This document shows positions 1 to 64,000 of a stretch of DNA of 64,000 bases, in pieces. The translations under genes and the position numbers were made by a program. The notes beneath the pieces are model-generated. The model ran no database searches. It worked only from the letters and a program-made list of their open reading frames with translations, and had not been told where the DNA came from. How positions within the stretch are numbered: the stretch's first letter is position 1; every line of letters starts with the position of its first letter. The stretch covers positions 13,707,140-13,771,139 of the forward strand of contig NC_081404.1 in NCBI RefSeq assembly GCF_030684315.1, read 5' to 3'. This DNA comes from Stegostoma tigrinum (lineage: Eukaryota).

Positions 1-2020
1 CAGATACAGAACACATGTGTCAATGTGCAATTGGAGGGCGGTCCGAAATTCGATGTCGAGGAGCTCCTCGCCAATGCCAGGAGGCAGTACGAAGCCTGCG
101 CCCAGCAGAGCCGCGAGGAAGCGGAAACTTGGAAACAAACCAAGGTGAAGATTACGTGTCGCTGTCGCGTTCTTATCCAGCGGGCTGCAAAGTGAACTGT
201 GGGACTAACGTGTTCCCAATGTCTGTTTGCAGATGCAGGAACTGGCCATGGCGTCTGGACAATGTGGCGATGATCTCAATATGCTGAAGTCAGAGATTAA
301 ACAGTCGACAGATCAAATCCGGAAACTGAAAGCATCCATCGATGCCCTGAAAAAGGAGGTAGGCAAAGGTGTGAAAGCGAACAGGGTATGGGAAACGGTT
401 GTAAATATCTGTACGTCTCTTTTACTCTCTCTGTCTTACCTCTCTGTCCGACATTATTATCGGGAAGGCAATAAGGGGATAGGATCAGCTCGGCTGGGTT
501 CTTTTCTGACAACGTGGGGGGTCTGACTGCTGTCCTTTCCGATTGGAATCAGTGGCTGGCCAGTCACGCCGTCCTCCGCAAATCATTGCGCGGGGCGGGA
601 GCGTTTTGCCTCGGTGTCGTTCTGAACACTGAGCTGACCCCAGTAAATACTGAAGAAACTGGCCGAATGAATATTTATGTTCCTCAGCGTCTGAAACTGG
701 AAGATGCAATCCGAGAAGCAGAGGAACGCGGCGAGAATTCTCTGAAAGACTCTCGGATGAGGATTAGCGAACTGGAAGAGGCCATCTTGAGAGCCGGGCA
801 AGAGCTTTCCAAACAAGCCAGGGAGTACGAACAGCTGGTGGGCATCAAGCTTGCACTGGACATTGAAATTGGGACCTACAAGAAAATGCTGGAGGGAGAG
901 GAGGCAAGGTAAGATCAGGGCCAGTCGCTAATCGCAGCCATCACATTGAGTCCCGTGCTGGCAAATTGCAGTCCGTCCTTGCAGTTGACTGGTAGCTCTG
1001 GTCTCTGAGAATGGAATGGACTGCAGGCACTGGGAGTGACAATCACTTCATTATCTACATGTCCCGGGTAAAGGTCAGCTGTCCCGTTCCTCACGCTCCC
1101 ATGGCCTGCTGGCCCCTGCTGCCTGTGACAGCAGCACCTAAAGACTGGGCACTTTGCCTGAGGCGAAGGAAGCTGACAGTGCCCTTTCAGAAGTGCATCC
1201 CAGCAGATGTCAGAGTCTCTGGGTGAGGGAGGAACTTGGGAAAACGGAGTGAAAGGGTGACTGTGATTTCCTGCAATTTCCTGCTGCGATCTGAGTGTGT
1301 TTCATTTCTCAACAGGATGGCAAGTGGGGTTAAAACCCTCAACATCCAGCAAGTCCAGAGCCAAGGTAAGAGAATTTGCGGTCCAAGTGAAGTGTGATGA
1401 TTCTTTCTGGTCAGGTTCTGCTCAGCTTCATTCCAATCAGCCATCATCATTTCCCACCTTCAACATCAGATGCTTGTATCATTTGGCCTTGTCAAATGAT
1501 CGGTAATCACCAGCCCTTGCCAGCCTACTTCACATCCCTGATTGACATCACCCAACCAGCTTTCAGTTCATGAGGCTCCAATTCTAAGAATTCCGTCTGT
1601 CAGCATTTCCTTCATTCTCCTTCCCAGTCGCCTCCTTCAAGGGCTAGATTTTCCGCATGCTTTTTCTCATCGTCCTGATGGATTTATAGGGTTTCAAATT
1701 GTTTCTTGGAGAAAGCGGCTGCAAAACATCTAGGGCTGTCGTACTTTGCGAAAGATACAACACAAATTGAGTTACTTTATCATTTTGCAATTATACTTTC
1801 AATTGTAGCACCAAGATGACAAGAAAAGTTTTTTTTTTTCTCTCTCTGTGCCCCTTTGACAGGTGGTTTGCAACAAGGCTTGGGTTGGGGAGCTGGATCA
1901 TCTTCCTATGAGACCTCACTGAGTTCAAGTGGCTCGTACGCGAGCAACAGAGCGACGGTGGGTGGACGAACCACGTATGAGGTGTCGAGCACAGGACTCA
2001 GTCAACAAGGGATCATTTGA
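1..2020 (+). CDS. Type II keratin-like intermediate filament gene, copy A (5' part outside window; exons 5-9)
   Basis: Exons <1-144, 233-358, 688-908, 1316-1365, 1863-2020 (TGA 2018-2020), all with GT-AG borders. Helix-termination motif [20 protein letters not shown] and a Gly/Ser-rich tail. Confidence 0.93.
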
Positions 2021-2205
2021 AACCATCAGTGCCTCCCAGCCGTTCATTGTCAGAGGTTATACTTTCCCTCAGTACTGTTTTTAGAGCGGTGGTTGACATC
2101 TTTATATTCACTTCATGTCTGCTACTCGGAATGACTGCATTAACCTGTTCACGTTTCATACTTAAATGACATGAAGTCTACAGCGACATCTTCATCAGTT
2201 GACAA

Positions 2206-2211
2206 AATAAA
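2206..2211 (+). terminator. Polyadenylation signal, copy A
   Basis: AATAAA ~185 nt after the stop, followed by a GT-rich downstream element (GTTTGGGTTTGTGGG). Confidence 0.7.
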
Positions 2212-2863
2212 GTAAACTTTGTGAAAGTTTGGGTTTGTGGGAAATGCAGTCAGGACGTTCACACTGTATTTGTTGGTATCTTTAAAATGGGAATTAAAGC
2301 AAAGCTTTCGCTGTTGAACTCTGTTTCACTTTGATGTGTAATTTTGTTCGTTGATTTACCTTATGGCATTGCTGTCCGGCTGAATAAACGTGTAAACTGC
2401 ACAACTCGATTGCTTTTTGAGCAGCACAATGTTAAATGAATGAAAAGGACAATGCTCATCCATTGTTGTGTAATTCAAGAAGTGCCCACTCCAATATCGT
2501 TACATTTCCACAAGTATGATGACACGTAGAAAGACGTCTTTGTAGTTAGCATGTCGGCACAAATACCCCAACACTGAAAATAAGCTGTCAGCCTGAATGA
2601 AACTATTCAGTCCAACATCAGTGAAACCACTGTTGTGAATCTGACCAGATTCCCTCAAAATATTTTACCAACTTATCTAGACCTTCACTCGTTCTGATCA
2701 GAAATGTAAATATAATGTGTGTGTCCCAAATGAACTACGACTCATCAAACCACATGATGTTAAGCTCTACTTAAAATACAACCAAGGAAGGAAGCATTTG
2801 GAATAACAACTGTATTGGAAATCTTCATAGAAGAATAAATACAGTAATTATTACTTACTTCCT

Positions 2864-3150
2864 TATAGAGATTTATAAAATCATGAGGGGCATGGATCGG
2901 GTGAATACCCAAAGTTTTTTCCCTAGGGTGGGGGAAGTTCAAAACTTTAAGGTGAAAGGGGAAAGATATTGAAGGGACCTCAGGGGAACGTCTTCACGCA
3001 GAGGGTGATGCGTGTTATGGAATGAGCTACCGGAAGAGGTGGTGGTGGCTGGAACAATTGCAACATTTAAAAGGCATTTGGATGGATATATGAATGAGGG
3101 GTGCTGGCAAATGGGACTAGATTAATTTAGCATATCTGGGCAGCATGCAC
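2864..3150 (+). mobile_element. Decayed 3' fragment of a CR1-clade LINE (also at ~19013-19299 and ~35157-35443)
   Basis: Degenerate ORF2 C-terminus (LIEIYKIMRGMDRVN...FTQRV...WNELPEEVV...TFKRHLD), homologous to 7930-8195. Confidence 0.75.
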
Positions 3151-3361
3151 ATAGGGAAGGGGCCAAATCAAAATATGGAGCGGGAAGGGGAGATGAGGCA
3201 CTCTAACCGCTGCTATGTCTACTTTTCTCTAAAGACACTAGAATATTGGTGAACACCTATCCAAGTACACCTAGGCATGAATGTAACTGCAGGCAGGAGT
3301 GATATGGACCAGTCAACAGTTGACAACGACAACAACAACGCTGGAAAAGCTCAGCAGGTCT

Positions 3362-3539
3362 GAAAAAGACAATGTTGACGTGAAGAATATTGAGATACAG
3401 GCTATTAGACTAGATGGGATTAAGGTTCACAAGGAGGAAGTGTTAGCAATTCTGGAATATGTGAAAATAGATAAGTCCCTGGGCCTGATGGGATGTATCC
3501 TAGGATTCTCTGGGAAGCTAGGGAGGAGATTGTAGAGCC
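3362..3539 (+). mobile_element. Short internal CR1 ORF2 fragment (also at ~19511-19688 and ~35655-35832)
   Basis: Encodes EIQAIRLDGIKVHKEEVLAILEYVKIDKS, closely similar to 6625-6803 of the larger CR1. Confidence 0.75.
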
Positions 3540-3670
3540 AGAGAGATAGTAGGAACTGCCGATGTTGGAGAATCTGAGATAACACTGTGTGAAGCTGGAT
3601 GAACACAGTGGACCAAGCAGCATCAGAGGAACTGGAAAGCTTGACATTTTGGGTCGGGACCCTTCTTCTG
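3540..3670. repeat. Possible Penelope-like terminal-repeat remnant (related piece at ~3335-3362)
   Basis: GAACTGCCGATGTTGGAGAATCTGAGATAAC...GCAGCATC...TTGACATTTTGGGTCGGGACCCTTCTTC resembles, from memory, an abundant chondrichthyan repeat. No coding evidence. Confidence 0.3.
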
Positions 3671-4408
3671 TTCACAATAATCCATACATGATCTGACCAC
3701 AGCCTTATACAGCCTTAGCAAAACATCTCTGCTACTATATTCTGGCACTTGAAATGAATGCCAACATTGTATTTGCCTTCCTAACTGCCAACTGAACTTG
3801 CATGTTAACCGTTAGGGAATCCTGCACTAACACTCATAAATGACTTTATGCTTCAGATTTCCAATGCCTTTCCCCAATTTATGAAACAGTCTACTTTTAT
3901 TTATTTTACCAAAGTGCATAGTATCACGTTTTCCCACATTGGATTCTATCTCCCACTTCTTTGCCCATTCTCTTAGTCTCTCCAGGACCTTTGCAGCCTG
4001 CCTTCTGCAACTGTATTCGGGTCACCTGCAAATTTAGCAACAGTGCCCTCAGCTGTTTTGTCCAAATCGTATATTGTGGATAGTTGTGATCCCTACAGGA
4101 CTCCACTAGTCATCAGCTGAAAAAGATCCGTTTATCTTCACTCACTGCTTTCTGCCACTCACATTCTATCCATGCCAGTACCTTGCGCCAACACATGGGG
4201 CCTTATTTTATTTAGCAAGCTCCTGCATGGTACCTTGTCAAAAGCTTTCTGGAAATCCAAATAGATCACACCCCGGCTCTCTTTTGTCTAATTTGCTCCT
4301 CAAAGAATTCTAACAGAATTGTCAGGTGTGACTTCCCCTTAATGAAACCAAGCTGACTCAGCTGTATTTTCCCATGCACTTACAAGTACTCTGCAAACTC
4401 ATCCTTAA

Positions 4409-4722
4409 GGGCGGCATGGTGGCTCAATGGTTCGCACTGAGCCTCGCAGCACCTGGGACCCAGGTTCAATTCCAGCCTCAGGTGACTGTCTGTGTGGAGT
4501 TTGCACGTTCTCCCCATGTCTGCATGGGTTTCTTCCGGGTGCTCTGGTTTCCTCCCACAGTCCAAAGGTGTGCAGGCTGGATGGATTGTCCATGCTAATT
4601 CCCGTAGTGTTCAGGGGTGTGTGGGTTATAGGGGGGATGGGTCTGGGTGGGATGCTTCAAGGGGCAGTGTGGACTTGTTGGGCCAAAGGGCCTGTTTCCA
4701 CTCTGTAGGGAATCTAATCTAA
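4409..4722 (+). mobile_element. tRNA-derived SINE (HE1 / V-SINE-like)
   Basis: Pol III A box TGGCTCAATGG at 4420-4430, B box GGTTCAATTCC at 4463-4473, V-domain-like core GTCTGTGTGGAGTTTGCACGTTCTCCCC...GGTTTCCTCCCACAGTCCAAAG, CR1-like tail GGGCCAAAGGGCCTGTTTCC and (AATCT)n end. Confidence 0.88.
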
Positions 4723-4793
4723 TAATGGATTCTAAAATCTTACAAATGACTGAAGTCAGGTTTTCCAGCCTGTAGTTTCCTGTCTTCTGCCTC

Positions 4794-5232
4794 AAAGAAC
4801 AAAGAAAATTACAGGACAGGAACAGGCCCTTCAGTCTTCCAAGCCTGTGCCAATTTCCAGATCCTCCATCTAAACCTGTCACTTAATTTCCAAGAATCTG
4901 TATCCCTCTGCTCCCTGCCTCTACTAGCTCCGTTGGCAACGCATTCCAGGCACCTACCACCCTCTGAGGTAAGAACTTTCCACGCATATGTCCCTCAAAC
5001 TTTTCCTCTCCCACCTTGAAATCGTGACCCTTAGTAATTGAGTCCTCCACTCTGGGAAAAAGCTTTTTCCTATCCACGCCTTGAATTGAATCTTCCAAAG
5101 TGCATCACCCCGCATTTGCCTGAATTGAACTCCATCTGCCATTTCTCCGCCCAACTCTCCAATCTATCCATATTGTGCTGCATTCTCCAACAGTCCCCTT
5201 CACTATCTGCTCCTCCACCAAACTTAATGCCG
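4794..5232 (-). mobile_element. Short internally deleted CR1 nested in the older CR1 (also at 20943-21381 and 37087-37525)
   Basis: 3' tail at 4794, ORF2 C-terminus (GVDRKKLFP...QRVVGAWNALP) joined near 5080 to a WQMEFN...CGVMHFG segment. Flanked by an 8 bp direct repeat TCTGCCTC at 4786-4793 and 5233-5240. Confidence 0.8.
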
Positions 5233-5536
5233 TCTGCCTCCCTCCCTTCTTAAACAGGAATGTTACATTAGCCATTTTCCAATCCTCTGGGACCCTTCCT
5301 GACTCCAGTGACCCCTGAAAAATCACCACCAATAGCTTTATAATCTCTTCAGCTGTCTCCTTCATCAGGACTCGGAGATGTAATACATTTGATCCAAGCA
5401 ATTTATCCGCCTTCAGAAATTTCAACTTCTACAGCACCATTGCCTTCATGATGGCCACTACACTCACCTCTGCCCCTGATTTTCTTGAGGTTCTGGTATG
5501 CTGCTGGTATCTTCTACGGTGCAAACTGATACAAAA

Positions 5537-8280
5537 TGGATAGAGCAGGGACAGGAACGGTTGTTGCAGGTTCCGGGATTTAGATGTTTCAGTAAGAACA
5601 GAGAAGATGGTAAAAGGGTCGGAGGTGTGGCATTGTTGGTCAAGGGCAGTATTACAGTTGCAGAAAGGATGTTTGGGGACTCCTCAACTGAGGTAGTATG
5701 GGCTGAGGTTAGAAACAGGAAAGGAGAGGTCACCCTGTTGGAAGTTTTCTATAGGCCTCCGAATAGTTCCAGAGACGTAGAGGAAAGGATAGCAAAGATG
5801 ATTCTCGATAGGAGTGAGAGAGACAGGGTAGTTGTCATGGGGGACTTCAACTTTCCAGATATTGACTGGGAACACTATAGTTCAAGTACTATAGATGGGT
5901 CAGTTTTTGTCCAGTGTGTGCAGGAGGGCTTCCTGACACAGTATGTAGATAGGCCAACAAGGGGCGAAGCCACATTAGATTTGGTACTGGGTAATGAGCC
6001 CGGCCAGGTGTTAGATTTGGAAGTAGGTGAGCACTTTGGTGATAGCGATCACAATTCTGTTATGTTTACTTTAGTGATGGAAAGGGATAGGTGTATACCA
6101 CTGGACAAGAGTTATAGCTGGGGGAAAGGCAGTTACGATGCGTTTAGGCAAGATCTAGGGAGCATAGGATGGGGAAGGAAATTGCAGGGGATGGGCACAT
6201 TGGAAATGTGGAGCTTCATCAAGGAAAAGCTCCTGTGTGTCCTAGGTAAGTATGTACCTGTCAGGCAGGGAGGATGCTGTAGAGTGCGGGAACTGTGGTT
6301 TACGAAGGAGGTGGAATCTCTGGTCAAGAGGAAGAAGAAGGCTTATGTTAGGATCAGATGTGAAGGCTCAGTTAGGGCACTTGAGGGCTACGAGGTAGCC
6401 AGGAAAGACCTAAAGAGAGAGCTCAGAAGAGCCAGGAGGAGACATGAGAAGTTGTTGGCAGATAGGATCAGGGTAAACCCTAAGGCTTTCTATAGGTATT
6501 TAAGGAATAAAAGAATGACGAAAGTAAGATTAGGCCCAATCAAGGATAGTAGTGGTAAGTTTTGTGTGGACTCAGATGAGATAGGGGAAGCGCTAAATGA
6601 ATATTTTTCAACAGTATTCACTCTAGAAAACGACAATGTTGTCGAGGAGAATACTGAGATACAGGCTACTAGACTAGGTGGGATTGAGGTTCACAAGGAA
6701 GAGGTATTAGAAATCCTACAGAGGGTGAAGATAGATAAGTCCCCTGGGCCAGATGGGATTTATCCTCGGATCCTCTGGGAAGCCAGGGAGGAGATTGCCG
6801 AGCCTTTGGCATTGATCTTTAACTCGTCATTGTCTGCAGGAATAGTGCCAGATGACTGGAGGATAGCAAATGTGGTTCCCCAGTTCAAGAAGGGGAGTAG
6901 AGACAACCCTGGTAATTATAGACCAGTGAGCCTTACCTCAGTTGTTGGTAAAGTGTTGGAAAAGGTTATAAGGGATAGGATTTATGATCATCTAGAAAAG
7001 AATAAATTGATTAGGGATAGTCAGCACGGTTTTGTGAAGGGAAGATCGTTCCTCACAAACCTTATTGAGTTCTTTGAGAAGGTGACCAAACAGGTAGATG
7101 AAAGTAAACCGGTTCATGTGGCGTATATGGATTTCAGCAAGGTGTTCGATAAGGTTCCCCACAGTAGGCTATTGTACAAAATGCAGAGGAATGGAATTGT
7201 GGGAGATATAGCAATTTGGATCGGAAATTGGCTTGCTGAAATAAGACAGAGGGTGAGTTGATGGGAAATGTTCATCCTGGAGACCAGTTACTAGTGGTGT
7301 ACCACAAGGGTCGGTGTTGGGTCCACTGCTGTTTGTCATTTTTATAAATGACCTGGATAAGGGTGTAGAAGAATGGGTTAGTAAATTTGCAGATGACACT
7401 AAGGTCGGTGGAGTTGTGGATAGTGACGAAGGATGCTGTAGGTTGCAGAGAGACATAGATAAGCTTCAGAGCTGGGCTGAGAGGTGGCAAATGGAGTTTA
7501 ATGCAGACAAGTGTGAGGTGATGCACTTTGGTAGGAGTAACCAGAAGGCAAAGCACTGGGCTAATGCTAAGATTCTTAGTAGTGTAGATGAGCAGAGAGA
7601 TCTCGGTGTCCATGTACACAGATCCTTGAAAGTTGCCACCCAGGTTGACAGGGCTGTTAAGGAGGCATACAGTGTTTTAGCTTTTATTAATAGAGGGATC
7701 GAGTACCGGAACCAAGAGGTTATGGTGAAGCTGTGCAAAACTCTGGTGCAGCCGCACTTGGAATATTGTGTACATTTCTGGTCACCGCATTGTAAGAAGG
7801 ATGTGGAAGCTTTGGAAAGGGTGCAGAGGAGATTTACTAGGATGTTGCCTGGTATGGAGGGAAGGTCTTACGAGGATAGGCTGAGGGACTTCAGGCTGTT
7901 TTCATTAGAGAGAAGAAGGTTGAGAGGTGACTTAATTGAAACATCTAAAATAATCAGAGGGTTAGATAGGGTGGATAGGGAGAGTCTTTTTCCTCGGATG
8001 GTGATGGCGAGCACGAGGGGGCATAGCTTTAAATTGAGGGGTGAAAGATATAGGACAGATGTCAGAGGTAGTTTCTTTACTCAGAGAGTAGTAAGGGAAT
8101 GGAATGCTTTGCCTGCAACAGTAGAAGATTCGCCAACTTTCGGTACATTTAAGTCGTCATTGGACAAGCATATGGACGTAAATGGAATAGTGTAGGTCAG
8201 ATGGGCTTGAGATCGGTATGACAGGTCGGCACAACATCGAGGGCCGAAGGGCCTGTACTGTGCTGTAATGTTCTATGTTC
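5537..8280 (+). mobile_element. 5'-truncated CR1 LINE, ORF2 (APE endonuclease plus RT) with one frameshift near 7255
   Basis: ORFs 5498-7261 and 7314-8195: [47 protein letters not shown]. 3'UTR GGGCCGAAGGGCCTGT and ATGTTCT-type tail. Confidence 0.95.
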
Positions 8281-8490
8281 CTGTGGCAATACAGAAGCAT
8301 CCCATAAGCAACATCCATTGGTTAAAGGGAAAATTCAGACACAGATTCTCACACACATTTCTCCAGTCTAGGAGGGAAATATCACCCGGAGAAAATACAA
8401 AGAAAGTAGCGACCCGGAGACATTCACTCAAGCTCCCAACTCTGTTGAGACTCCAACAGCTTCTGATGCTGCATGAAAAAGTCCCGAAAT

Positions 8491-10680
8491 CTATAGACAA
8501 TAGACAATAGCTACTGGAATCGGCCATTCGGCACTTCGAGCCACCACCCCCATTCGTTATGATCACGGATGATCATCCACAGTCAGTATCCTGTTCCTGC
8601 CTTCTCCCCATAACCCTGGATTCCACTGTCTTTAAGAGCTAATATCTATCTCTTTCTTCAAAGCATCCAGAGAGTTAGCCTCCACTGCCATCTTGGGCAG
8701 AGCATTCCATATATCCACCAGTCTCTGACTAAAGAAGTTTCTCCTCAACTCTGTTCTAAATGGCCTAGCCCTTATTTTTAAACTGTGTCCTCTGGTTCTG
8801 GACTCACCCGTCAGCGGAAACATGCTTCCTGCCTCCAAAGTCTCCAATCCCTGAATAAACTTATACGCCTCAATCAGATCCACTCTCATCATTCTCAGCT
8901 CAAGTGTAAACAAGCACAGTCGCTCCAATCTTTCAACATCCGATAGTCCCGCCATTCTGGGAATTGACCTCGTGAGCCTACACTGTACTCCCTCAATAGC
9001 AACAATGTCCTTCCTCAAATTTGGAGACCAAAACTGCACACAAAACTCCAGGTGCAGTCTCACCAGGGCCCTGTACAGCTGAAGAAGGACCTCTTTGCTC
9101 CGACACTCAATTCCTCTTGTTATGAAGGCCAGCATGTAATTAGCTTTCTTCACTGCCTGCTGTACCTGCATGCTTGCTTTCATTGGCTAATTGACAAGAA
9201 CACCTAGGTCTCGTTGTACTTCCCCTTTACCGAAATTGACTCCATGGAGGTAGAAATCTGCCTTCCTGTTCTTGCCACCAAAGTGTATAACTGCACATTT
9301 ATCCACATTAAACTGCATCTGCCATGCATCCGACCTCTCAACCAACTTGTCCAAGTCACCCTGTAGTCTCAAAACATCCTCCTCACATTTCACACTGCCA
9401 CCCAACTTTGTGTCATCTGCAAATTTGCTAGTAATACTTTTAATGCCTTCATCTATATCATTAATATATATCATAAACAGCTGCGGTCCCAGCACCGAAT
9501 CTTGTGGTACCCAACTGGGCAATGCCTGCCATCCGAAAGGGTTGTGTTTATCACTACACTTTGCTTCCTGTCAGCCAGCCAATTTTCAGTCCAACTCAGT
9601 ATTTTGCCCCCAATACCATGTGCCCCAATTTTGTTCACCAATCTCCGATGTGGGACTTTATCAAAGGCTTTCTGAAAGTCCAGGTACACCACATCCACTG
9701 TTTCTCCCTTAACCATCTTCAGAGATAGATTCTCCAAAAAATCCAGAAGATTAGTCAAGCACGATTTCCCCTTCGTAAATCCATGCTGACTCTGACCGAT
9801 TCTGTTCCTGCTATCCAAATGAATCGTAATTTCATCTTTTATAATTGACTCCAGCATCTTTCCCACCACTGATGTCAGGCTAACCGGTCTATCATTTCCT
9901 CTTTTCCCTCTCCCTCCTTTCTTGAAAAGTGCGACAACATTTGCCAGCCTCCCATTCACAGGAACTGATCCTGAATCTATAGACCCTTGGAACATAATTA
10001 CCAACGAGTCCACAATTTCTGGAGCCACCTCCTGAAGTACCGTGGGATGCACACCATCAGGTCCCGGGGACTTATCGGCCTTCAGACCGAACAGTCTATC
10101 CAACACCTTTTCCTGCCTAAGAGAAATACCCTTCAGTTCGTCCATTACCCTAGGTCCTTCAGCCACTATTGCATCTGGGAGATTTCTTGTGTCTTCCCTA
10201 GTGAAGACAGATCTAAAGTACCTATTCAATTCTTCCTCCATTTCCTGGTTCCCCATGTTCAATTCACCCGTTTCTGACTTCAAGGGCCCAATTTTAGTCT
10301 GAACCATTTTTTTTTCTTTTCACATCGCTAAAAAAGCTTTTACTATCCTCCTTTATATTTTTGGCCAGTTTTCTTTCATAGCTCATTTTTTCACTGTTTA
10401 TTGCCTTTTTACTTATCGGCTGTTGCTCTTTAAAAGCTTCCCAGTCCTCCCGCTTCCCACTCATCTTTGCTATGTTATACTTCTCTCTTATCTTTATGCA
10501 GTCCTTAACTTGACTCGTCAGCCATGAGCTGATCCTGCACCTTCTGCATGATATCCAGAAATACCTGCCACTGTTGTTCCACTGCCATCCGTGCGAGGGG
10601 ATTGTACTATTGAACTTTGGCCAGCTCCTCCCATATAGCTGCATAGTTCCCTTCATTCAACTCAATGCTGACACATCCGG
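8491..10680 (-). mobile_element. 5'-truncated, decayed CR1 LINE of a second subfamily
   Basis: Broken ORF2 pieces 8632-9183, 9187-9522, 9471-10307, 10294-10656 ([31 protein letters not shown]); (CTATTGT)n tail at 8491-8510. Confidence 0.92.
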
Positions 10681-14339: not shown

Positions 14340-14470
14340 CCACCTCTCCTCCCCGGCCCAGGGGCACAGGGCGGCGGCTGGTTCCTCCCCTCTCCGGTTT
14401 GCTCCATTCTGGGCGGTTCCTTGTCAACAGACAGCCCCTTGGCCAACCCAGACTCACACGGACATAAAAG
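14340..14470 (+). promoter_or_regulatory. Putative keratin proximal promoter, copy B (GC boxes plus TATA-like CATAAAA)
   Basis: GGGCGG boxes at ~14370 and 14411; CATAAAA at 14463-14469, ~110 nt upstream of the ATG, followed by a (CT)n leader. Confidence 0.6.
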
Positions 14471-51509: not shown

Positions 51510-53699
51510 CTATAGACAATAGACAATAGCTACTGGAATCGGCCATTCGGCCCTTCGAGCCAGCACCCCCATTCGTTATGATCATGGCTGATCATCCACA
51601 GTCAGTATCCTGTTCCTGCCTTCTCCCCATAACCCTGGATTCCACTGTCTTTAAGAGCTAATATCTATCTCTTTCTTCAAAGCATCCAGAGAGTTGGCCT
51701 CCACTGCCATCTTGGGCAGAGCATTCCATATATCCACCACTCTCTGGATAAAGAAGTTTCTCCTCAACTCTGTTCTAAATGGCCTAGCCCTTATTTTTAA
51801 ACTGTGTCCTCTGGTTCTGGACTCACCCGTCAGCGGAAACATGCTTCCTGCCTCCAAAGTCTCCAATCCCTGAATAAACTGATACGCCTCAATCAGATCC
51901 CCTCTCATCATTCTCAGCTCAAGTGTATACAAGCCCAGTCGCTCCAATCTTTCAACATCCGATAGTCCCGCCATTCTGGGAATTGACCTCGTGAGCCTAC
52001 ACTGCACTCCCTCAATAGCAACAATGTCCTTCCTCAAATTTGGAGACCAAAACTGCACACAAAACTCCAGGTGCAGTCTCACCAGGGCCCTGTACAGCTG
52101 AAGAAGGACCTCTTTGCTCCGATACTCAATTCCTCTTGTTATGAAGGCCAGCATGTAATTAGCTTTCTTCACTGCCTGCTGTACCTGCATGCTTGCTTTC
52201 ATTGGCTAATTGACAAGAACACCTAGGTCTCGTTGTACTTCCCCTTTACCCAAATTGACTCCATGGAGGTAGTAATCTGCCTTCCTGTTCTTGCCACCAA
52301 AGTGTATAACTGCACATTTATCCAAATTAAACTGCATCTGCCATGCATCCGTCCACTCAACCAGCTTGTCCAAGTCACCCTGTATTCTCAAAACATCCTC
52401 CTCACATTTCACACTGCCACCCAACTTTGTGTCATCTGCAAATTTGCTAATATTACTTTTAATGCCTTCATCTATATCATTAATATATATCGTAAACAGC
52501 TGCCGTCCCAGCACCGAATCTTGTCGGTCCCCACTGGGCAATGCCTGCCATTCCGAAAGGGACCTGTTTATCACTACACTTTGCTTCCTGTCAGCCAGCC
52601 AATTTTCAGTCCAACTCAGTATTTTGCCCCCAATACCATGTGCCCTAATTTTGTTCACCAATCTCCGATGTGGGACTTTATCAAAGGCTTTCTGAAAGTC
52701 CAGGTACACCACATCCACTGTTTCTCCCTTAACCATCTTCAGAGATACATTCTCCAAAAATTGCAGAAGATTAGTCAAGCACGATTTCCCCTTCGTAAAT
52801 CCATGCTGACTCTGACCTATTGTGTTCCTGCTATCCAAATGAATCGTAATTTCATCTTTTATAATTGACTCCAGCATCTATCCTACCACTGACGTCAGCC
52901 TATCCGGTCTATCATTTCCTCTTTTCCCTCTCCCTCCTTTCTTGAAAAGTGCGACAACATTTGCCAGCCTCCAATTCACAGGAACTGATCCTGAATCTAT
53001 AGAACCTTGGAACATAATTACCAACGAGTCCACAATTTCTAGAGCCACCTCCTGAAGTAGCGTGGGATGCACACCATCAGGTCCCGGGGACTTATCGGCC
53101 TTTAGACCGAACAGTCTATCCAACACCTTTTCCTGCCTCTGAGAAATACCCTTCAGTTCGTCCATTACCCGAGGTCCTTCAGCCGCTATTGCATCTGGGA
53201 GATTTCTTGTGTCTTCCCTAGTGAAGACAGATCTAAAGTACCTATTCAACTCTTGCTCCATTTCCTTGTTCCCCATTATCAATTCACCCGTTTCTGACTT
53301 CAAGGGCCCACTTTTAGTCTGAACCATTTTTTTTTCTTTTCACATCGCCAAAAAAGCTTTTTCTATCCTCCTTTATATTTTTGGCCAGTTTTCTTTCATA
53401 GCTCATTTTTTCTCTGTTTATTGCCTTTTTACTTATCGGCTGTTGCTCTTTAAAAGCTTCCCAGTCCTCCCGCTTCCCACTCATCTTTGCCATGTTATAC
53501 TTCTCTCTTATCTTTATGCAGTCCTTAACTTGACTCGTCAGCCATGAGCTGATCCTGCACCTTCTGCATTATATCCAGAAATACCTGCCACTGTTGTTCC
53601 ACTGCCATCCGTGCGAGGGGATTGTACTATTGAACTGTGGCCAGCTCCTCCCATATAGCTGCATAGTTCCCTTCATTCAACTGCAATGCTGACACATCC
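51510..53699 (-). mobile_element. Decayed CR1 LINE, spacer 4 copy (more diverged, different lesions)
   Basis: ORF pieces 51651-52202, 52206-52877, 52878-53327. It lacks the frameshift at ~9520 of spacers 1-3 but has its own stop at 52878. Confidence 0.92.
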
Positions 53700-55579
53700 G
53701 GAACGGACCCCACCTCTTCAGGCTTTATTTTTTTCAAAATCCAAGACTTTATCACCTGTTTACTAAAAAGGGTCTTGATGAGCCAGCTCCAAACCTCTGC
53801 GTTACAATGTCTCCGAGAGCCCACAGGACAAAATAACCTCTTCAAATGACAGCACACCATTCAGTACACCACCGCCGAAACCGCTCAGTTCACACTCACG
53901 GAAACTAATGAGTGCACCATCCTTGAAAGCACCCCGGCACCATCACTGAAACTGCGCAATACCCCAGTATTGAAACATCCTGGCTGTCAATTTGCTGAGT
54001 CGGTTGGGCAGTTGTTTTGCGATGCAGAGTGATGGCAGCAGCACGCGTCGAGCCCGTGCAGTGCCTGCGACCATCTTGCCGATCCTGCCTTCTCAAGCTT
54101 CCGTCTTGCCTGAGGCATGGTGACCCGCTGGTTAAGCTGACAACCAGTTTTCCCTCACTGTATTGCAGGCACTTTCCGCCCGAACTGTGTGAGCCGGCGC
54201 TACACGCAGACCCAGATTGAAGGCAAGACAGCAGAGTAACATTTTGAGGGCACATTGGCGCACACCTGTTTGTCAATATTTCTGTCTTTTGCAATTATGT
54301 GTTCAATGATTGCAATTCTCTGGTTTTGCGAGACTGTGTCGAGGCACAGAAGCAAGCATGTTGGTGCTGATAGCACACATCCATATCCCGACATGATGTT
54401 GCATGGTGTGCATTGAGGAAGTGCTGCACCATGAGCAGACAAACGGAAGTCGCTGCTGCATGCAATATTCACAGATCTGCTGCACAGACATTAGTTTTGC
54501 GTCACAAGGATTTTTAGGGCTCCCGTTCCGTCTTTCGTGACATGGTCAAGGTGCTTCCGCTAAGTCGTTGGTTTGCGCTCAGTGGACAGATGGCCACCGG
54601 GTCAAAGCTGGATGAGTTTGCAGCTGCATGACACCTTCACTTTCTGGCTGTGTGTATAATGCTGTTCCCTTTTGAACAGTCTCACGTTGCCGCGATACGC
54701 AGCACCCTCCCTGACAGGACCCAGCACCAACGGCAACAGCTTTGGGTCTGGCCTCAGACATTTCCATTCCCATTGAGCACTTGTGCTTTTCAGCAAAATG
54801 GAAGCTACAAATGGCAGCTCTTTCAGACGTGCGTTCTGTGTGTCTAACCGAGTCTGCACCTGCCCACTTATCCCCCGAGCTGCAAGGATATCAGGTCAAT
54901 AGGCCAGCATTTCCGGGGAACCGACACTTTCCCATTCACTTCCAGCCTTCCGCGGTTTATCGTCTCCCCACTTATATATTCAGCTGTCCCCCAGGGCCTT
55001 TTCACTTTACTCACCACCATTGTGTTCGTCGCCCTTTTCCCGCAGCACTGGCACCCGAATACCCGCCACCTAACCTTGACTTTCTGTGGATGGACACCTC
55101 ACATTGACCGTGGTGCACCACTTCAGCTGCTTCGCTGTGCAGCCCTGATCAATGAGTGACCAGAACCCTGACTGATACTTCTGCAGCTCTGCTACTCTGT
55201 TCCTGTGTCTCGCTGGACTGATTGCAATGGATCCACGCGGCTGACCAGAGCCAACTCTCCAGGCTGCACTGCTATGGGCCACCGAACCGTCAGCACTCTA
55301 AGCGTCTCACACCTTGCCCAAGTCCCTGGACTGATATCATAGACAGCCCAGAACTTTACAAATTCCAAATGTGTTATTAATGTCGCCAGATTGCACACCT
55401 TCCAATTATACCATTTTTGTACTGCAACGCATTCTTTGCCTTGCATCACAGCGGCATCCACTAGCTCCCTCAAGCTTCATCCCGTCTTATTTAGAATATA
55501 GAACATAGAACAGTACAGCACAGAACAGGCCCTTCAGCCCACAATGTTGTGCCGACCATTGATCCTCATGTATGCACCC

Positions 55580-58480
55580 TCAAATTTCTGTGACCATATA
55601 CATGTCCAGCAGTCTCTTAAATGACCCCAATGACCTTGCTTCCACAACTGCTGCTGGCAATGCATTCCATGCTCTCACAACTCTCTGTGTAAAGAACCCA
55701 CCTCTGACATCCCCTCTATACTTTCCTCCAACCAGCTTAAAACTATGACCCCTCGTGCTAGCCATTTCTGCCCTGGGAAATAGTCTCTGGCTATCAACTC
55801 TATCTATGCCTCTCATTATCTTGTATACCTCAATTAGGTCCCCTCTCCTCCTCCTTTTCTCCAATGAAAACAGACCGAGCTCAGTCAACCTCTCTTCATA
55901 AGATAAGCCCTCCAGTCCAGGCAGCATCCTGGTAAACCTCCTCTGAACCCTCTCCAAAGCATCCACATCTTTCCTATAATAGGGCGCCCAGAACTGGACG
56001 CAGTATTCCAAGTGCGGTCCAACCAAAGTTTTAAAGAGCTGCAACAAGATCTCACGACTCTTAAACTCAATCCCCCTGTTAATGAAAGCCAAAACACCAT
56101 ATGCTTTCTTAACAACCCTGTCCACTTGGGTGGCCATTTTAAGGGATCTATGTATCTGCACACCAAGATTCCTCTGTTACGCCACGCTGCCAAGAATCCT
56201 ATCCTTAATCCTGTACTCAGCTTTCAAATTCGACCTTCCAAAATGCATCACCTCGCATTTATCCAGGTTGAACTCCATCTGCCACCTCTCAGCTCATCTC
56301 TGCATCCTGTCAATGTCCCGCTGCAGCCTACAACAGCCCTCTACACTGTCAACGACACCTCCGACCTTTGTGTCGTCTGCAAACTTGCTGACCCATCCTT
56401 CAATTCCCTTGTCCAAGTCATTAATAAAAATTACAAACAGTAGAGGCCCAAGGACAGAGCCCTGTGGAACTCCACTCACCACTGACTTCCAGGCAGAATA
56501 TTTTCCTTCTACTACCACGCGCTGTCTTCTGTTGGCCAGCCAATTCTGTATCCAAGCAGCTAAGTTCCCCTGTATCCCATTCCTCCTGACCTTCTGAATG
56601 AGCCTACCATGGGGAACCTTATCAAATGCCTTGCTGAAGCCCATATACACCACATCCACAGCTCGACCCTCATCAACTTTTCTAGTCACATCCTCAAAAA
56701 ACTCGATAAGGTTTGTAAGGCATGACCTACCCCTCACAAAGCCGTGTTGACTGTATTTGATCAAGCCATGCTCTTCCAGATGGTCATAAATCTTATCCCT
56801 CAGAATCCTTTCTAACACCTTGCAGACGACAGACGTGAGACTTACTGGTCTATAATTGCCGGGGATTTCCCTATTTCCTTTCTTGAAGAGAGGAATTACA
56901 TTTGCCTCTCTCCAGTCCTCAGGTACGACTCCAGTGGACAGCGAGGATGCAAAGATCTTCGCAAGTGGCGAAGCAATTGCATTTCTCGCTTCCCAAAGCA
57001 GCCGAGGACAAATCTGATCCGGGCCTGGCGACTTGTCAATCTTAATGTTTGACAAAATTTTCAGCACATCAGCTTCCTCTATCTCTATCCCTTCCAGCAT
57101 GCACACCTGCTCTTCAAAGGTTACATTCACTACAAAGTTCGTTTCTTTCGTAAAGACAGAAGCAAAAAACTCATTTAGGGCTTCCCCTACCTCCTCAGGC
57201 TCCACACACAAGTTCCCTATGCTATCCCTGATCGGCCCTACTCTTTCTTTGATCATTCTCTTATTCCTCACGTAAGTGTAAAATGCCTTTGTGTTTTCCC
57301 GGATTCCTTCTGCCAAGCCTTTCTCGTGCCCCCTCCTGGCTCTCCACAGACCATTTTTGAGCTCCTTCCTTGCCTGCATGTAATCCTCTCTCGCTGAGCT
57401 TGACCCTAGCTTCCTCCACCTTATGTAAGCTACCTTCTTCCTTTTCACAAGAAGCTCCACCGCTCTCGTCATCCAAGGTTCCTTAATCTTACCCCTTCTT
57501 GCCTGTCTCAGAGGGACATATTTACTCATCACTCCCAACAACTGTTCCTTAAACCGTCTCCACATGTCTATAGTTCCCTTACCATGGAACAATTGCTCCC
57601 AGTCCATGCTTCCTAACTCATGTCTAAACGCATCATAGTTTCCTCTTCCCCAATTAAATATCCTCCCATTTTGCCTAATCCTCTCCTTCTCCATAGCTAT
57701 GTAGAATGTGAGGCAGTTATGGTCACTATCACCAAAATGCTCTCCCACCACAAGATCTGATACCTGCCCCGGCTCGTTTCCGAGCACCAATTCTAGAATG
57801 GCCTCTCCCCTCGTCGGCCTGTCAACGTACTGCGTTAGGAAACCCTCCTGAACACACCTTACAATAACAGCTCCATTCAAATCTTCTGCTCGAAGGAGGT
57901 TCCAATCAATATCAGGAAAGTTGAAGTCACCCATTACAACAACCCTACTAAATCCACACTTTTCCAAAATCTGTCGACCTCTGCTTTCTTCAATCTCCCT
58001 GCTGCTATTGGGGGGCCTGTAGTAAACCCCTAACGAGGTGACTACTCCTTTGCTGTTCCTAATTTCCACCCATACTGACTCAGTAGGCAGATCTTCCTCG
58101 ACAAAGGAAGCTTCTGTAGCTGTGATACCCTCTCTGATTAGTAGTGCTACACCCCCTCCTCTTTTTCCCCCCTCCCTATTCTTTTTAAATGTTCTAAACC
58201 CTGGAAGATCCAGCAACCATTCCTGCCCATGAGAAACCCATGTCTCTGTTATGGCCACAACATCATAGCACCAGGTACTGATCCATGCTCTAAGTTCATC
58301 ACTTTTATTCCTGATACTCCTTGCATTAAAGCAAACACACTTTAACCGATCCCTTGGTTCCTTCCCAGGAAAATCCTTCCCACTAGCTGGTCTACCTCTT
58401 GCTACTGCCTCACCTGCATCAACGCTCACCTCTGGTATACAGCTCAGGTTCCCACCCCTCTGCCATACTAGTTTAAACCC
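55580..58480 (-). pseudogene. CR1 ORF2 (APE endonuclease plus RT), inactivated
   Basis: [43 protein letters not shown]. Stops at 56294-56296 and 56177-56179; YMDFSK has become YMGFSK at 56639-56641. Confidence 0.92.
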
Positions 58481-59404
58481 TCTCGAACTACTCGAGCGAA
58501 CCTTCCACCCAGGACATTGGTCCCCTTCCAGTTCAGATGCAACCCGTCCTTCTTGTACAGGTCCCACCTTCCCCAGAAGGCATCCCAATTATCTACATAT
58601 CTGAAGCCCTCCCTCCTACACCAGCTGCGTAGCCACGTGTTCAGCTGCGCCCGCTCCCTGTTCCTTGCCTCGCTATCTCGTGGCACTGGTAGTAACCTAG
58701 AGAACACTACTCTGTTCGTCCTGCTCTGCAGCTTCCATCCTAACTCCCTGAAATCACTTTTTATATCTTCAATCCTATTTCTGGCCATATCATTTGTGCC
58801 AATATGTAACACGATTTCTGGCTGTTCGCCCTCCCCTTTTAGAACCTTATACACCCGATCGGAGACGTCCCGGACCCTGGCACCGGGGAGGCAACATACC
58901 TTCCGGGAATCCCGATCTTGCCCACAAAATCTCCTGTCGATTCCCCTAACTATCGAGTCCCCTACCACGAGTACTTTTCTATTCTGCCCCCTTCCCTTCT
59001 TTGCCACACAGTGTCAGGCTCAGTGCCAGAGAACTGACGACTATGGCTTTCCTCTGGTAGGTCATCCCCCCCAGCAGTATCCAAAACGGTATACTTATTG
59101 CTGAGGGGAATGTCCACAGGGGATCTCTGCGCTGTGTGTCTGTCCCCTTTCCTCCCCCTAACTGTAACCCATCTATCCTCGTCCTGAGCCTTAGGAGTGA
59201 TCAACTCCCGATAACTCCTCTCAATTACCCCCTCTGCCTCCCGATGATCCGTAGTTCATCCAGCTCCAGCTCCACTTCCCTAACACGGTTCTCAAGGAGC
59301 TGGAGTTGGGTGCACTTCCCGCAGATGTAGCCAGCGGAGACGTGTGCCACGTCTCCCAACTGCCACATTCTGCAGGAGGAGCAAGCAACTGCCCTAGCAT
59401 CCAT
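58468..59404 (-). pseudogene. CR1 ORF1 (CxxC...CxxC zinc finger, leucine zipper, SGNH/GDSL esterase), two frameshifts
   Basis: MDARAVACSSCRMW...YICGKCTQLQLLENRVREVELELDEL and esterase blocks VVGDSIVR, LPGARV, HIGTND, DGLHLN. Frame changes near 59240 and 59010. Confidence 0.88.
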
Positions 59405-60246
59405 ACCCCACTTATCTGAACACCCACTCAATACTAAAGAAGAAAGCTTACGTCAAATAATAATAACAAATTAATAACAAACTTATATTCAATAGAGAAA
59501 GTTTAGAATGAACCTTACCTTATTAACTAGGTTAGAGGAGGAGGGCGGGTGGGAGACTCTACAGTTGTAGAGTCTCGGGTTTAGCCGCCTCGCTGATATA
59601 GATGGTCACTGCTTTCCTTCCCGGCTGCCCCTCTGGTCCTCGTCACTTCCTCCGCTGTTCCCGCTCCTTCTCTGAAAGAGGAAAAACACCGCTGCCCGCT
59701 ACCGGTAAGTAGTTTTAAAAATTTATTTACTTTTATTGTAAATAATCAACACTGCTGCTCCCAGTAAGCTCATTATAACACTGTAGGGAAGTTTTCTAAT
59801 ATTCACGAAGCCTTACAATCCCTGAAACATCTGTTCAATTTAAACAGTGGTGAACAAAATACTCAACGTCCCCATTTGACTGGAATGTCACCATTTATTT
59901 AACCGTGTGTTTGGGGGTTTGGTGGTTGTACAATGTGGGTGGGTGTAATGGTGCACAGCGCTCAATTCCCATGGGCTCTCTGCCCGCTCTCACGCAATCT
60001 TCCATTGCTAATTTTCATGAGACTGCCCAAGTCAGAAAAGCAGCTCGTCGCTCTCTCCAACCTCCGTCATTCACCAAACTCCAAGGTCCAGATCGTGTTG
60101 CAAGTTGCACTCAGTGACCAGCTGCCTTCCAATCTCATTGATTTCCAGAAACTGCGACTAAGATCATTCGTGGGTGGGAGCCTGAGACTTTCCTGCTGGC
60201 CTGGCCATGTCCAAGATTCAGACGCGACCAGAAAAGCTGCAAACTG

Positions 60247-61630: not shown

Positions 61631-61761
61631 CCACCTCTCCTCCCCGGCCCAGGGGCACAGGGCGGCGGCTGGTTCCTCCCCTCTCCGGCTTGCTCCATTC
61701 TGGGCGGTTCCTTGTCAACAGACAGCCCCTTGGCCAACCCAGACTCACACGGACATAAAAG
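61631..61761 (+). promoter_or_regulatory. Putative keratin proximal promoter, copy E
   Basis: CATAAAA at 61754-61760 and the same GC boxes. Confidence 0.6.
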
Positions 61762-61876
61762 CAGCCGAGTCCGTCCTCAGCTCCACCGAGCCGTTCACGT
61801 TCTGACTGTGCTCTCTCTCTCTCACTCTCTCTCTCTGTCTCTGCGAGTCTGTGTCTACGTCGTGAAAAACCTCGAA

Positions 61877-63801
61877 ATGACATCGAAAATCATCAGCAGC
61901 ACCACCAGCAGCACCTCCCGCAGCAGCAGGAGCCGAGGGGGAGGCCCAATTGGCGGAGCAGCCGGGTTTTCCACTGGACTGATCCTTTCGGGAAGCGGAG
62001 GGGGTGTTCGGGGACCCAGGAGCTCCCAAAGTGTCATCCTGAGACCGACACAGTCCGTTTCAAGCGCCCGAATCTCCCGAGGCTCGGTGTTGGGCTCCAG
62101 CAGATATGGTGGCGGCGGTGGATCGAGCTTCAGCCGAATAAGTGTCGGTGCGGCTGGTTTAGGCTCAATGGGCTACCGGGGATATGGGGGAGGTATGTCT
62201 CAAGGTCTGATCCAGAGAACCGCTGCCCTGGACCTGAGCACCCCTTTGCCTCAAATCGATACCACCCAGCGGGCTATCCGAGTGGAGGAGAGCAAGCAGC
62301 TTCAGGGACTCAATAACCAGTTCGCGGACTTCGTTGGCAAGGTAATGTTCAGTGCTGCCCAGGCGGGTGGGTTTGTCAAATGCGTCCTCCGTGTCGTTTT
62401 CTCTCGTGCCTTGTGGTGTCCGTCGCAACGTCTAACTATCTGTCTCTCCATCTCACCCCGCCAGGTTCGGTATTTGGAAAGGATCAATACTGAGCTGAAT
62501 ATCAAACTGAAACTTCTGCAGGATCAAGGCGAATACAAATCCAACATCGAGAGCATGTTCCAGGTCTACATTGACAATCTGAAGAAACAACTGGAGGCAC
62601 TTGGCCAGGAGAAGCTGAGGTTCGAGGCAGACCTGGTCCAAATGCAAGCTCTGGTCGAGGACTATAAGGGCAAGTAAGTGAGCTGCAGCTGAGTTGAGTC
62701 ACGGGTTGCTTCGGAGGCGGGTTCGTGTCCGAACCAAACAGAAATACCAGGGACAGAATGAGTTCGCTTTGCCAAACCGGTAGAATGACAGCTGACGGAA
62801 TTGTCCGCAGCATTGCCATGTAGACCGAACCGAACTGCACAGGGCTGTGCCGCTTCTCGTCTACGCGCTCGTTTGATTGAAGTGGGAGCACGGCTGATGC
62901 TTCCGACAACATCGTCTGACAGTGTGTGTCTTGTGTCGGGACGGAAAGGTAACGACGAGCGGAGACAGAGACAAAACAGGGACGGTGATAGGGATCAGGC
63001 TGAAAGACTGAGCATCGGTAAAACAATCTCTTTCGTTCCAGGTACGAAGATGAAATCAACAAGCGGACGGAAATGGAAAATGAGTTTGTCCTGGTCAAGA
63101 AGGTGACTTTTATAACGATGCGCGGTACAGATCTCCGTTTGCGGCGACTTTTGCTCACTTTCATCAATGCATTCCCTCCCTCTGCTCTTTAGGATGTTGA
63201 TGACTCGTACATGAGCAAAGTGGAGCTGGAAGCTAAACTGGAAGGTCTGACAGATGAAATCGATTTCCTGCGGTCTATCTATGAAGAGGTAAACACGTGG
63301 CAATGGTCGGGCTGTTATCGTTTTCTGATCTGCTTTCCATTCGAGTCTCATGCAATGTAGCCCGAATGGTTTTCAATCACCTTGCAATCTTCATCCGCCT
63401 CCCCGCCCCCGCCCACATGTAGGAAATCCGGGAGCTGCAAGCCCAGATACAGAACACATGTGTCAATGTGCAATTGGAGGGCGGTCCGAAATTCGATGTC
63501 GAGGAGCTCCTCGCCAATGCCAGGAGGCAGTACGAAGCCTGCGCCCAGCAGAGCCGTGAGGAAGCGGAAACTTGGAAACAAACCAAGGTGAAGATTACGT
63601 GTCGCTGTCGCGTTCTTATCCAGCGGGCTGCAAAGTGAACTGTGGGACTAACGTGTTCCCAATGTCTGTTTGCAGATGCAGGAACTGGCCATGGCGTCTG
63701 GACAATGTGGCGATGATCTCAATATGCTGAAGTCAGAGATTAAACAGTCGACAGATCAAATCCGGAAACTGAAAGCATCCATCGATGCCCTGAAAAAGGA
63801 G
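61877..63801 (+). CDS. Type II keratin-like gene, copy E (exons 1-6; continues beyond window)
   Basis: Exons 61877-62341, 62465-62673, 63042-63102, 63193-63288, 63423-63587, 63676-63801. The window ends inside intron 6. Confidence 0.93.
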
Positions 63802-64000
63802 GTAGGCAAAGGTGTGAAAGCGAACAGGGGGTGGGAAACGGTTGTAAATATCTGTACGTCTCTTTTACTCTCTCTGTCTTACCTCTCTGTCCGACATTAT
63901 TATCGGGAAGGCAATAAGGGGATAGGATCAGCTCAGCTGGGTTCTTTTCTGAACGCGTGGGGGGTCTGACTGCTGTCCTTTCCGATTGGAATCAGTGGCT

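Follow-up and report, generated by a model that had tools for sequence, protein, structure and literature searches.

The window, by which we refer to the entire stretch of 64,000 nucleotides of Stegostoma tigrinum DNA that was analyzed, contains five type II keratin gene copies arranged head to tail. The first-pass annotation had reported at least five such nine-exon copies, and these are indeed present in the sequence, though only three of the five are complete and the other two are cut by the window ends. The gene copies are as follows:

1-2020, + strand: keratin copy A, exon 5 (truncated at the window start) through exon 9 and the stop codon
14578-18168, + strand: keratin copy B in full (9 exons, 516 amino acids)
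14578-15042, 15166-15374, 15743-15803, 15894-15989, 16124-16288, + strand: copy B, exons 1 to 5
16377-16502, 16832-17052, 17460-17509, 18011-18168, + strand: copy B, exons 6 to 9
30728-34313, + strand: keratin copy C, complete, 515 amino acids, 3-nt in-frame deletion in exon 1
46867-50457, + strand: keratin copy D, complete, 516 amino acids, G224C, recombinant
61877-63801, + strand: keratin copy E, exons 1 to 6; the window stops inside intron 6

Alignment of the window with itself gave a match of 35.2 kb at 99.64% identity (offset 16,144) and a second one of 19.0 kb at 99.64% (offset 32,291). Short tandem repeats were ruled out as the source of this periodicity, with only 4 trivial rows obtained, and an Rfam scan of the 64-kb window returned 0 matches. 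The exons of the keratin gene measure 465/209/61/96/165/126/221/50/158 nucleotides, with phases 0,2,0,0,0,0,2,1, and agree with the standard type II keratin layout, in which there are nine exons and the internal ones measure about 209-215/61/96/165/126/221. The claim that no visible exon carries a lesion proved correct, since 38/38 visible exons across the five copies are open and 67/67 splice sites are GT-AG (donors GT, 34/34; acceptors AG, 33/33); the number of pseudogenes is 0. Each visible promoter (4/4) has three GC boxes together with a TATA-like box, and AATAAA is found in 4/4 visible 3' ends. The five copies all differ from one another in sequence, and their proteins are 99.8 to 100% identical, copy C having one Ser fewer in a CAG repeat. 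Simple patterns for AP-1 or p63-type sites had no match in unit B; one GRHL-like 8-mer was noted in the 3' UTR of this unit, using a simple pattern without chance control.

The array is built from two unit types, type 1 of 16.1 kb and type 2 of 15.0 kb. The first-pass annotation had described units of ~16 kb, which is accurate for A to D (periods of 16,148, 16,145, and 16,144) but not for D-E (15,010), the period thus being non-uniform. It had also mentioned copy-specific SNPs and TE insertions. The former agrees with the five distinct sequences, whereas the TEs are not copy specific: the three A-D spacers carry an identical set of elements, and the D-E spacer alone differs. The spacer features are the following:

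2864-8277, no strand: spacer block 1, made of TE fragments (5.4 kb), in type-1 units only, bounded by 5-bp microhomology
5489-8195: LINE ORF2 inside block 1, frameshift near 7260
8278-12430, no strand: spacer block 2, common to both unit types, LINE remnant and unannotated sequence
about 8630-10650, - strand: LINE remnant in block 2
12431-14577, + strand: 5' flank of copy B, with a LINE 3' fragment (12960-13480), three GC boxes, and a TATA-like box at 14463
19013-28579, no strand: B-C spacer, blocks 1 and 2, type 1
35157-44723, no strand: C-D spacer, blocks 1 and 2, type 1
51302-55493, no strand: block 2 of the D-E spacer, 2.7% diverged from type-1 spacers, without block 1
55494-59720, - strand: near-full-length LINE, in the D-E spacer only, with an apparent 5-bp target duplication
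58468-59013, - strand: ORF1 of the D-E LINE, GDSL-esterase
56294-58588, - strand: ORF2 of the D-E LINE, endonuclease-RT, separated by a break from a C-terminal piece at 55580-56176

Nine ORFs were scanned in the unannotated part of the spacer (about 10500-12950); the only match was a sub-threshold one to THAP (E=0.026), and this part was treated as non-coding.

The intermediate-filament rod PF00038 was matched on three exon stretches of the window and covers positions 1-313 of 313 in the database model P0002. Fragment matches in the PDB were much stronger for type II K5 (E=1e-32) and K1 (E=4e-30) than for type I K10 and K14 (E about 1e-7), the top row being full-length vimentin, which scores by length, and nearly all named entries among the matches listed were type II keratins. 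In the tree, which took in no other shark type II paralogues and is hence silent on grouping with bony-vertebrate K8, the window protein is sister to that of the whale shark, an orectolobiform. Rod identity is 92% to the whale shark and 71% (218/309) to the basking shark; Scyliorhinus stellaris Q9YH07 (P0015) falls in the same clade, with 196/309 rod residues identical. Judged by these sequence comparisons, the window protein is a member of the elasmobranch "KRT8-like" type II lineage.

The C-terminal tails show a different pattern from the rods. For the final 30 residues of copy B, matches were confined to orectolobiform relatives (z 13-26), and no K8-type tail was found in copy B (z below 1 for K8 tails). 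P0002 shares 308/309 rod residues with copy B versus 13/45 tail residues; its tail is K8-like (z 3-6), and its last exon is common to skates and a devil ray. Similarly, Mobula hypostoma and M. birostris are identical at 306/309 rod and 13/43 tail positions, so that in both pairs two ancient tail types sit on nearly identical rods. The last exon of P0002 is absent from the window (tblastn; six peptide words and one overlapping word in six frames) and is therefore not an alternative exon inside the unit. With the P0002 tail alone as query, the 130 candidates yielded P0002 itself and, beyond that, just a marginal match in the whale shark. P0002 pairs a D-type rod with this last exon missing from the window.

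Variable coding sites among the copies are mostly synonymous (7/357 versus 1/1191 non-synonymous; P=2e-4). The synonymous rate equals the intron rate (P=0.49), and variable sites are less frequent in coding sequence (8/1548) than in introns (31/2036; P=0.005). There were 216 substitution columns against 10 indel events, and, except possibly for two 1-bp indels, none of the latter is a simple homopolymer run-length change, the usual long-read error. Because 7 SNPs are synonymous and only 1 is non-synonymous, the differences between copies look biological. Transitions account for only 90/216 substitutions, which was counted against our main reading; their share is equally low in 2/3 LINE-copy comparisons. 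Copies A, B, and C differ from each other by 0.02-0.36%, in the range of the allelic diversity given for the epaulette shark (pi 0.002) in the accessible part of PMC10587355. As A to C differ no more than shark alleles do, the copy number is not exact from the assembly alone. Nearly every coding SNP sets D and E apart from A, B, and C. Within the latter group we observed a single synonymous SNP and a single in-frame deletion; with so few changes, the evidence for selection is limited to the ABC/D/E splits.

The distal 5' flank of copy D differs from B at 2/1069 and from E at 29/1069 sites, and its introns differ from E at 3/1002 and from B at 25/2040 sites. Copy D appears to be a crossover product between the two unit types; mis-phased reads could mimic mosaics. 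The 25 informative sites form 3 runs, a clustering equaled in 0/100,000 shuffles. Two intervals were delimited:

45790-47350 (approximate), no strand: switch in copy D from type 1 (B-like) to type 2 (E-like), inferred crossover point
29285-29378 (approximate), no strand: tract in the distal 5' flank of C, six sites common to E and a paralogous LINE

The second interval is a probable conversion tract; it sits in a LINE fragment, and any genomic LINE copy could be the donor. Concerted evolution, proposed in the first-pass annotation, gains support from the mosaic informative sites, recombinant copy D, and the high identity within the lineage as compared with 71% between shark orders. Dating the array by the epaulette shark mutation rate was abandoned, since its tenfold confidence interval in the accessible text (PMC10587355), together with conversion, renders ages meaningless.

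In the white shark, five of 8 type II keratins are near-identical in the rod and have one run of locus numbers (PMC11850651). Inspection by eye of the supplement alignment of this article showed 0-4 differences in about 308 rod residues among XP_041036172-176, and its main text contains no remark on these near-identical copies for the terms searched. Based on sequence, the five copies are of the same lineage as the window gene. By eye, their distance from one another is roughly the same as that from the basking shark protein, and one expansion with slow evolution therefore fits that order. The window has no type I gene; among 8 white shark type I rods compared there is only one near-identical pair, a weak parallel to the type I expansion predicted in the first-pass annotation. 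A true KRT8 orthologue would be expected head to head with krt18; in the white shark, a different, diverged type II gene has a locus number adjoining that of a krt18-like gene, number adjacency being no proof of position. Sawfish has a cluster of four type II genes. Whale shark, little skate, M. hypostoma, and S. stellaris each have a single-member 90% cluster, and that of P0002 has 6 members, counts that may mix isoforms, alleles, and species and served as hints only. No description of a near-identical keratin array in sharks was found in the open-access literature searched. The multi-copy state occurs in two shark orders alongside an ancient second tail; independent expansions also fit.

Considering these data, a real array of no fewer than 3 copies per haplotype is very probable, and ongoing concerted evolution is likely. 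Our preferred reading, which we hold to be rather probable, is that of a tandem array whose copies are homogenized through unequal crossover and conversion, with purifying selection keeping them intact. Misaligned meiotic pairing of the 15-16 kb units would lead to unequal crossovers, by which entire units are gained, lost, or joined to one another, as shown by the two unit types, recombinant copy D, and the near-identity of the three type-1 spacers. Patchwork may also come from shorter conversion tracts; the clustered incompatible sites are observed, and the mechanism is inferred. Under purifying selection the protein would stay the same, with drift affecting synonymous sites, introns, and spacers, as shown for the ABC/D/E splits. 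Since the white shark, too, has this lineage in several near-identical copies, the arrangement would be old or recurrent in sharks. The copies may co-express one protein and so supply type II chain in bulk to the filaments of epithelia, probably of the epidermis. Type II keratins form obligate heteropolymers with type I keratins, and the array product would pair with type I chains encoded elsewhere. Whether dosage itself was selected appears evenly balanced.

Neutral copy-number drift by birth and death is the strongest alternative, although an unlikely one. It would involve young local duplications in a TE-rich region, repeated separately across shark lineages, with copies intact only through youth and the synonymous bias inherited from two older copies. 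This agrees with the just 1-5 differences per 5414 sites between block-1 spacers, the split of coding SNPs between D, E and A, B, C, the single-member 90% clusters in several species, and the low shark mutation rate stated in the accessible part of PMC10587355. However, the white shark has five near-identical copies of the same lineage, the window has five copies without a pseudogene, and the visible protein of E is unchanged even though the D-E spacer is 2.7% diverged and has its own LINE. We consider it improbable that a two- or three-copy locus was inflated by false haplotype duplication or by mis-phased reads, which would also have created the mosaics. The allele-level identity of A, B, and C would be accounted for, and P0002, if a chimera, would show read or annotation ambiguity at the locus, but five distinct sequences imply at least three copies per haplotype, most of the differences are substitutions and are biased toward synonymous sites, and an independent species has the same pattern; the earlier argument against a trivial assembly duplication is thus upheld. 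Very improbable is that copies were kept for diversification, a homogenized rod with different last exons or promoters per tissue, which the two ancient tails on near-identical rods would favor, as 4/4 visible last exons encode an identical protein, proximal promoters differ at 9/1074 sites, and the second tail is absent from the unit.

Under the preferred reading of a homogenized array under purifying selection, the data suggest that sharks multiply and homogenize a type II keratin gene rather than diversify it, the course mostly taken by land vertebrates. More tentatively, elasmobranchs may have had their main type II keratin as a dosage-amplified array under concerted evolution since before the shark-ray split, with exons 1-8 continually homogenized and the last exon in two forms. 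The ancestral K8-type tail would then belong to an edge copy, or else be a distal alternative exon, and the amplified copies would have the fast-evolving tail. If so, the epidermal cytoskeleton of sharks would be built from one amplified rod with exchanged tails, unlike the paralogue diversification of tetrapods. The usual account, in the accessible part of bioRxiv 10.1101/2020.05.06.063123, ties paralogue diversification to land life, with constant copy number in fish. To this, a homogenized type II gene that is multi-copy in at least two orders of sharks adds a second mode, in which copies are amplified but do not diverge; it would go unnoticed in short-read assemblies and after filtering at 99% identity. 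This opens two questions to public data, namely, selection on keratin-chain dosage and the origin of epidermal type II keratins from a K8-like ancestor.

Concerted evolution of keratin paralogues is already known. According to the accessible part of PMC5540548, mammalian K6A/B/C and K81/83/86/87 group by species, which was attributed to concerted evolution, and conversion was significant in 3/19 groups; the first-pass view of keratin clusters as normally made up of diverged paralogues was thus overstated. These mammalian sets comprise two to four genes amid many diverged neighbors, whereas the window repeats whole 15-16 kb units with TE-filled spacers at 97-99.98% identity. The chondrichthyan type II cluster 2 (bioRxiv 10.1101/2020.05.06.063123, as far as accessible) likewise has several tandem type II genes; its flanking markers krt18, eif4b, and faim2 are absent from the window, which holds only the array. 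There, Kimura and Nikaido describe keratin copy number as constant from shark to coelacanth, judged from the elephant shark, and the accessible main text has no near-identical array, unlike the window. The five white shark copies XP_041036172-176 resemble the window in number and lineage but are known from protein data rather than unit structure. Two keratins of S. stellaris, the simple-epithelial K8 and a type II "K1" of the epidermis, were reportedly cloned by Schaffeld et al. in 1998; Q9YH07, named keratin 8 in UniRef, may be this "K1". Arrays of rDNA, histone, and feather corneous-beta-protein genes consist of head-to-tail units with spacers, are homogenized by unequal crossover, and yield abundant products. 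They contain tens or hundreds of copies, compared with five in the window and five in the white shark, so that "rDNA-like" overstates the scale, and, unlike them, the window array repeats a spliced nine-exon gene.

The window holds intact keratin copies in tandem, with two unit types, one recombinant copy and a protein under constraint. Self-alignment revealed a 35.2 kb match at 99.64% with an offset of 16,144 bases, and successive units measured 16,148, 16,145, 16,144 and then 15,010 bases. The gene model, assembled from splice sites, comprises nine exons (phases 0,2,0,0,0,0,2,1) encoding 516 residues. Of the five head-to-tail copies (A to E), B, C and D are complete, and A and E are truncated by the window edges. 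The intactness noted in the first-pass annotation was borne out, as every visible exon (38) is open and every visible splice site (67) canonical; each of the four visible promoters has a TATA-like box together with three GC boxes, and AATAAA occurs in each of the four visible 3' ends. Copy C has lost 3 nt in frame within a CAG repeat, and copy D carries a single replacement, G224C. Intron 1 (window 15043-15165 in copy B, plus its copies) is 123 nt long, in frame and stop-free, so that the reading frame stays open from exon 1 across the intron into exon 2. Its retention would add 41 residues to coil 1A, an insert absent from the relatives' proteins.

Three spacers (A-B, B-C and C-D) have two blocks in common: a TE block of 5.4 kb, with differences at just 1-5 of 5414 sites, and a second block of 4.15 kb, with differences at 7-10 of 4153. 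The D-E spacer lacks the TE block, with a 5-bp microhomology at the junction, and its second block differs from those of the other spacers at 113-114 of 4148 sites. TE insertions, previously described as copy-specific, thus mark two unit types rather than single copies. Two spacer features are as follows.

55494-59720: LINE of 4.2 kb, own to the D-E spacer; ORF1 GDSL-type, ORF2 (endonuclease-RT) broken
11521-11877, minus strand: sub-threshold THAP match (E=0.026)

The LINE, which is near full length, encodes a GDSL esterase in ORF1 and retains long open stretches of ORF2; it is judged to be a fairly young shark retroelement, presumably CR1-type. A putative tRNA-derived SINE-like element (window ~4407-4720 and its copies) resembles the shark HE1 SINE. 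Another spacer stretch of ~1.8 kb (~10650-12430 and its copies), in which Pfam matches only the sub-threshold THAP, is perhaps a decayed DNA transposon.

Copy D unites the two unit types. Its distal 5' flank is B-like (2/1069 differences from B, 29/1069 from E) and its introns are E-like (3/1002 from E, 25/2040 from B). Comparison of B, C, D and E gave 25 informative sites (17 joining D with E, 7 C with E and 1 B with E); they form just 3 runs, and none of 100,000 shuffles was as clustered. This mosaic and clustering are the expected residue of unequal crossover plus short conversion, which would have caused the array pattern. The site-sharing tract in the distal 5' flank of copy C sits in a LINE fragment, and a paralogous LINE agrees at the six tract sites, so any LINE copy may have been the donor.

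Mosaics can also arise from mis-phased reads, and the differences among A, B and C (0.02-0.36%) may be allelic, being similar to those of epaulette shark alleles (pi 0.002 in the available part of PMC10587355); coding SNPs chiefly split D and E from the remaining copies. Against this stand five copies with five distinct sequences, implying at least three copies per haplotype, and between-unit changes comprising 216 substitution columns versus 10 indel events. Furthermore, 7/357 synonymous versus 1/1191 non-synonymous sites were variable (P=2e-4), whereas random errors would be ~77% non-synonymous, and the synonymous rate equals that of introns. We conclude that the array is real and that its protein is under constraint. 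Transitions make up just 90/216 substitutions between units, and A/C-G/T changes 67. Two of three LINE-copy comparisons gave equally low transition figures (0.48 and 0.67; the third, 1.78), and the low share is therefore tentatively read as a local trait.

Pfam recognised a filament rod in the gene, and solved K5 and K1 fragments outscored K10 and K14 by far against its protein, which classifies it as a type II keratin. Among the matches listed, the closest named protein was the whale shark 'KRT8-like' (87.7% overall, rod 285/309), followed by bamboo and epaulette sharks. A 28-row tree was built with copy B and, from 121 database proteins listed, P0002, P0008, all 19 named chondrichthyan matches and 6 bony-vertebrate matches, leaving out the remaining bony-vertebrate and the unnamed matches. 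The window gene was sister to whale shark inside a well supported orectolobiform clade, nested in an elasmobranch clade whose branching order approximates the species tree; Q9YH07, a Scyliorhinus stellaris type II keratin, falls in the clade of the window gene. In the alignment, type II keratins of bony vertebrates retain a tryptophan at the end of coil 1A that is missing from the elasmobranch lineage, whose coil 1A (copy B residues 137-175) is divergent, with coil 1B still K8-like. True K8 orthology of this lineage is only a possibility: the array tail is not K8-like, and the white shark locus number adjoining that of the krt18-like gene belongs to a different type II gene (available part of the PMC11850651 supplement).

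The database model P0002 is the same as copy D up to the end of exon 8; its final exon (residues 465-520) differs and was not found in the window. This tail is homologous to the tails of two skates (Leucoraja and Amblyraja) and of a devil ray (Mobula hypostoma), at z 10-14. Its homology to elephant shark and to K8 of bony vertebrates is weaker (z 3-6), and it is unrelated to the array tail. Models from two Mobula species are split in the same way (rod 306/309, tail 13/43). For an ancient tail to sit on an array-identical rod, either an edge gene and the array would have exchanged exons 1-8 by conversion, or the last exon would be a distal alternative one. P0002 may instead be an annotation chimera; otherwise its K8-type last exon lies outside the window. 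An ancient shared rod with two tails is, in our estimation, a rather doubtful model.

For white shark and sawfish we used Table S3 and the alignment in the accessible part of the PMC11850651 supplement. Eight white shark type II keratins are listed, seven in a single run of locus numbers. Compared by eye, five of these eight have 0-4 differences, at six variable sites in all, over ~308 positions of the rod, and they agree with P0006 of basking shark; the remaining three have diverged. For sawfish the listing gives four type II genes, in a single run. The accessible main text of PMC11850651 mentions no shark tandem or identical copies, concerted evolution or gene conversion. Rod identity between window and lamniform is 71%, and rods are homogeneous inside a lineage and diverged between lineages. 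Judged by eye, white shark copies lie roughly as near to basking shark as to one another, which would fit a single expansion in lamniforms followed by slow evolution equally well. Database cluster sizes, hints only as membership is not resolved, were 12, 7, 5, 4, 4, 4, 3 and 3 in several elasmobranchs, 2 in five others, and 1 in whale shark, little skate, M. hypostoma and S. stellaris. P0006, the basking shark representative, has a 12-member cluster and a longest contig of just 210 kb, as might be expected if the array sat on an unplaced scaffold. The arrangement is more widespread than the first-pass annotation could have known, but smaller than its label 'rDNA-like' implies.

That annotation had also predicted a type I expansion, of which the eight white shark type I rods examined in the supplement hold a weak echo, namely one near-identical pair with six differences.

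XP_041029365 and XP_041029409: near-identical white shark type I pair, by eye
XP_041033366 and XP_041033373: second white shark type I pair, long near-identical stretches amid divergence, by eye

These pairs suggest that conversion may also act among shark type I genes.

The window copies would be co-expressed, supplying the type II chain in bulk. In catshark, Schaffeld et al. reportedly described, in 1998, a single type II keratin of the epidermis, which Q9YH07 may be. According to the available parts of the sources, genes labelled krt8 and krt18 are expressed in dogfish skin epithelial and mucosal nuclei (PMC13558645) and shark skin mucus contains a KRT8-like protein (PMC10707392), labels that do not single out the window paralogue.

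As far as their accessible text goes, PMC8733776 states of chondrichthyan keratins only that they are near the K8 and K18 ancestors, and PMC1896152, PMC2174949, PMC9079066 and PMC10620051 do not treat keratin arrays. The literature searched, in the parts accessible outside subscription papers, described no whole-unit, near-identical shark keratin array. Multi-gene type II clusters of cartilaginous fish were already known (bioRxiv 10.1101/2020.05.06.063123, available part) and, like the window, contain several genes, whereas near-identical repetition of whole units is the window's feature. Concerted evolution, as read for the window array, was likewise already known among mammalian keratins (PMC5540548, available part).
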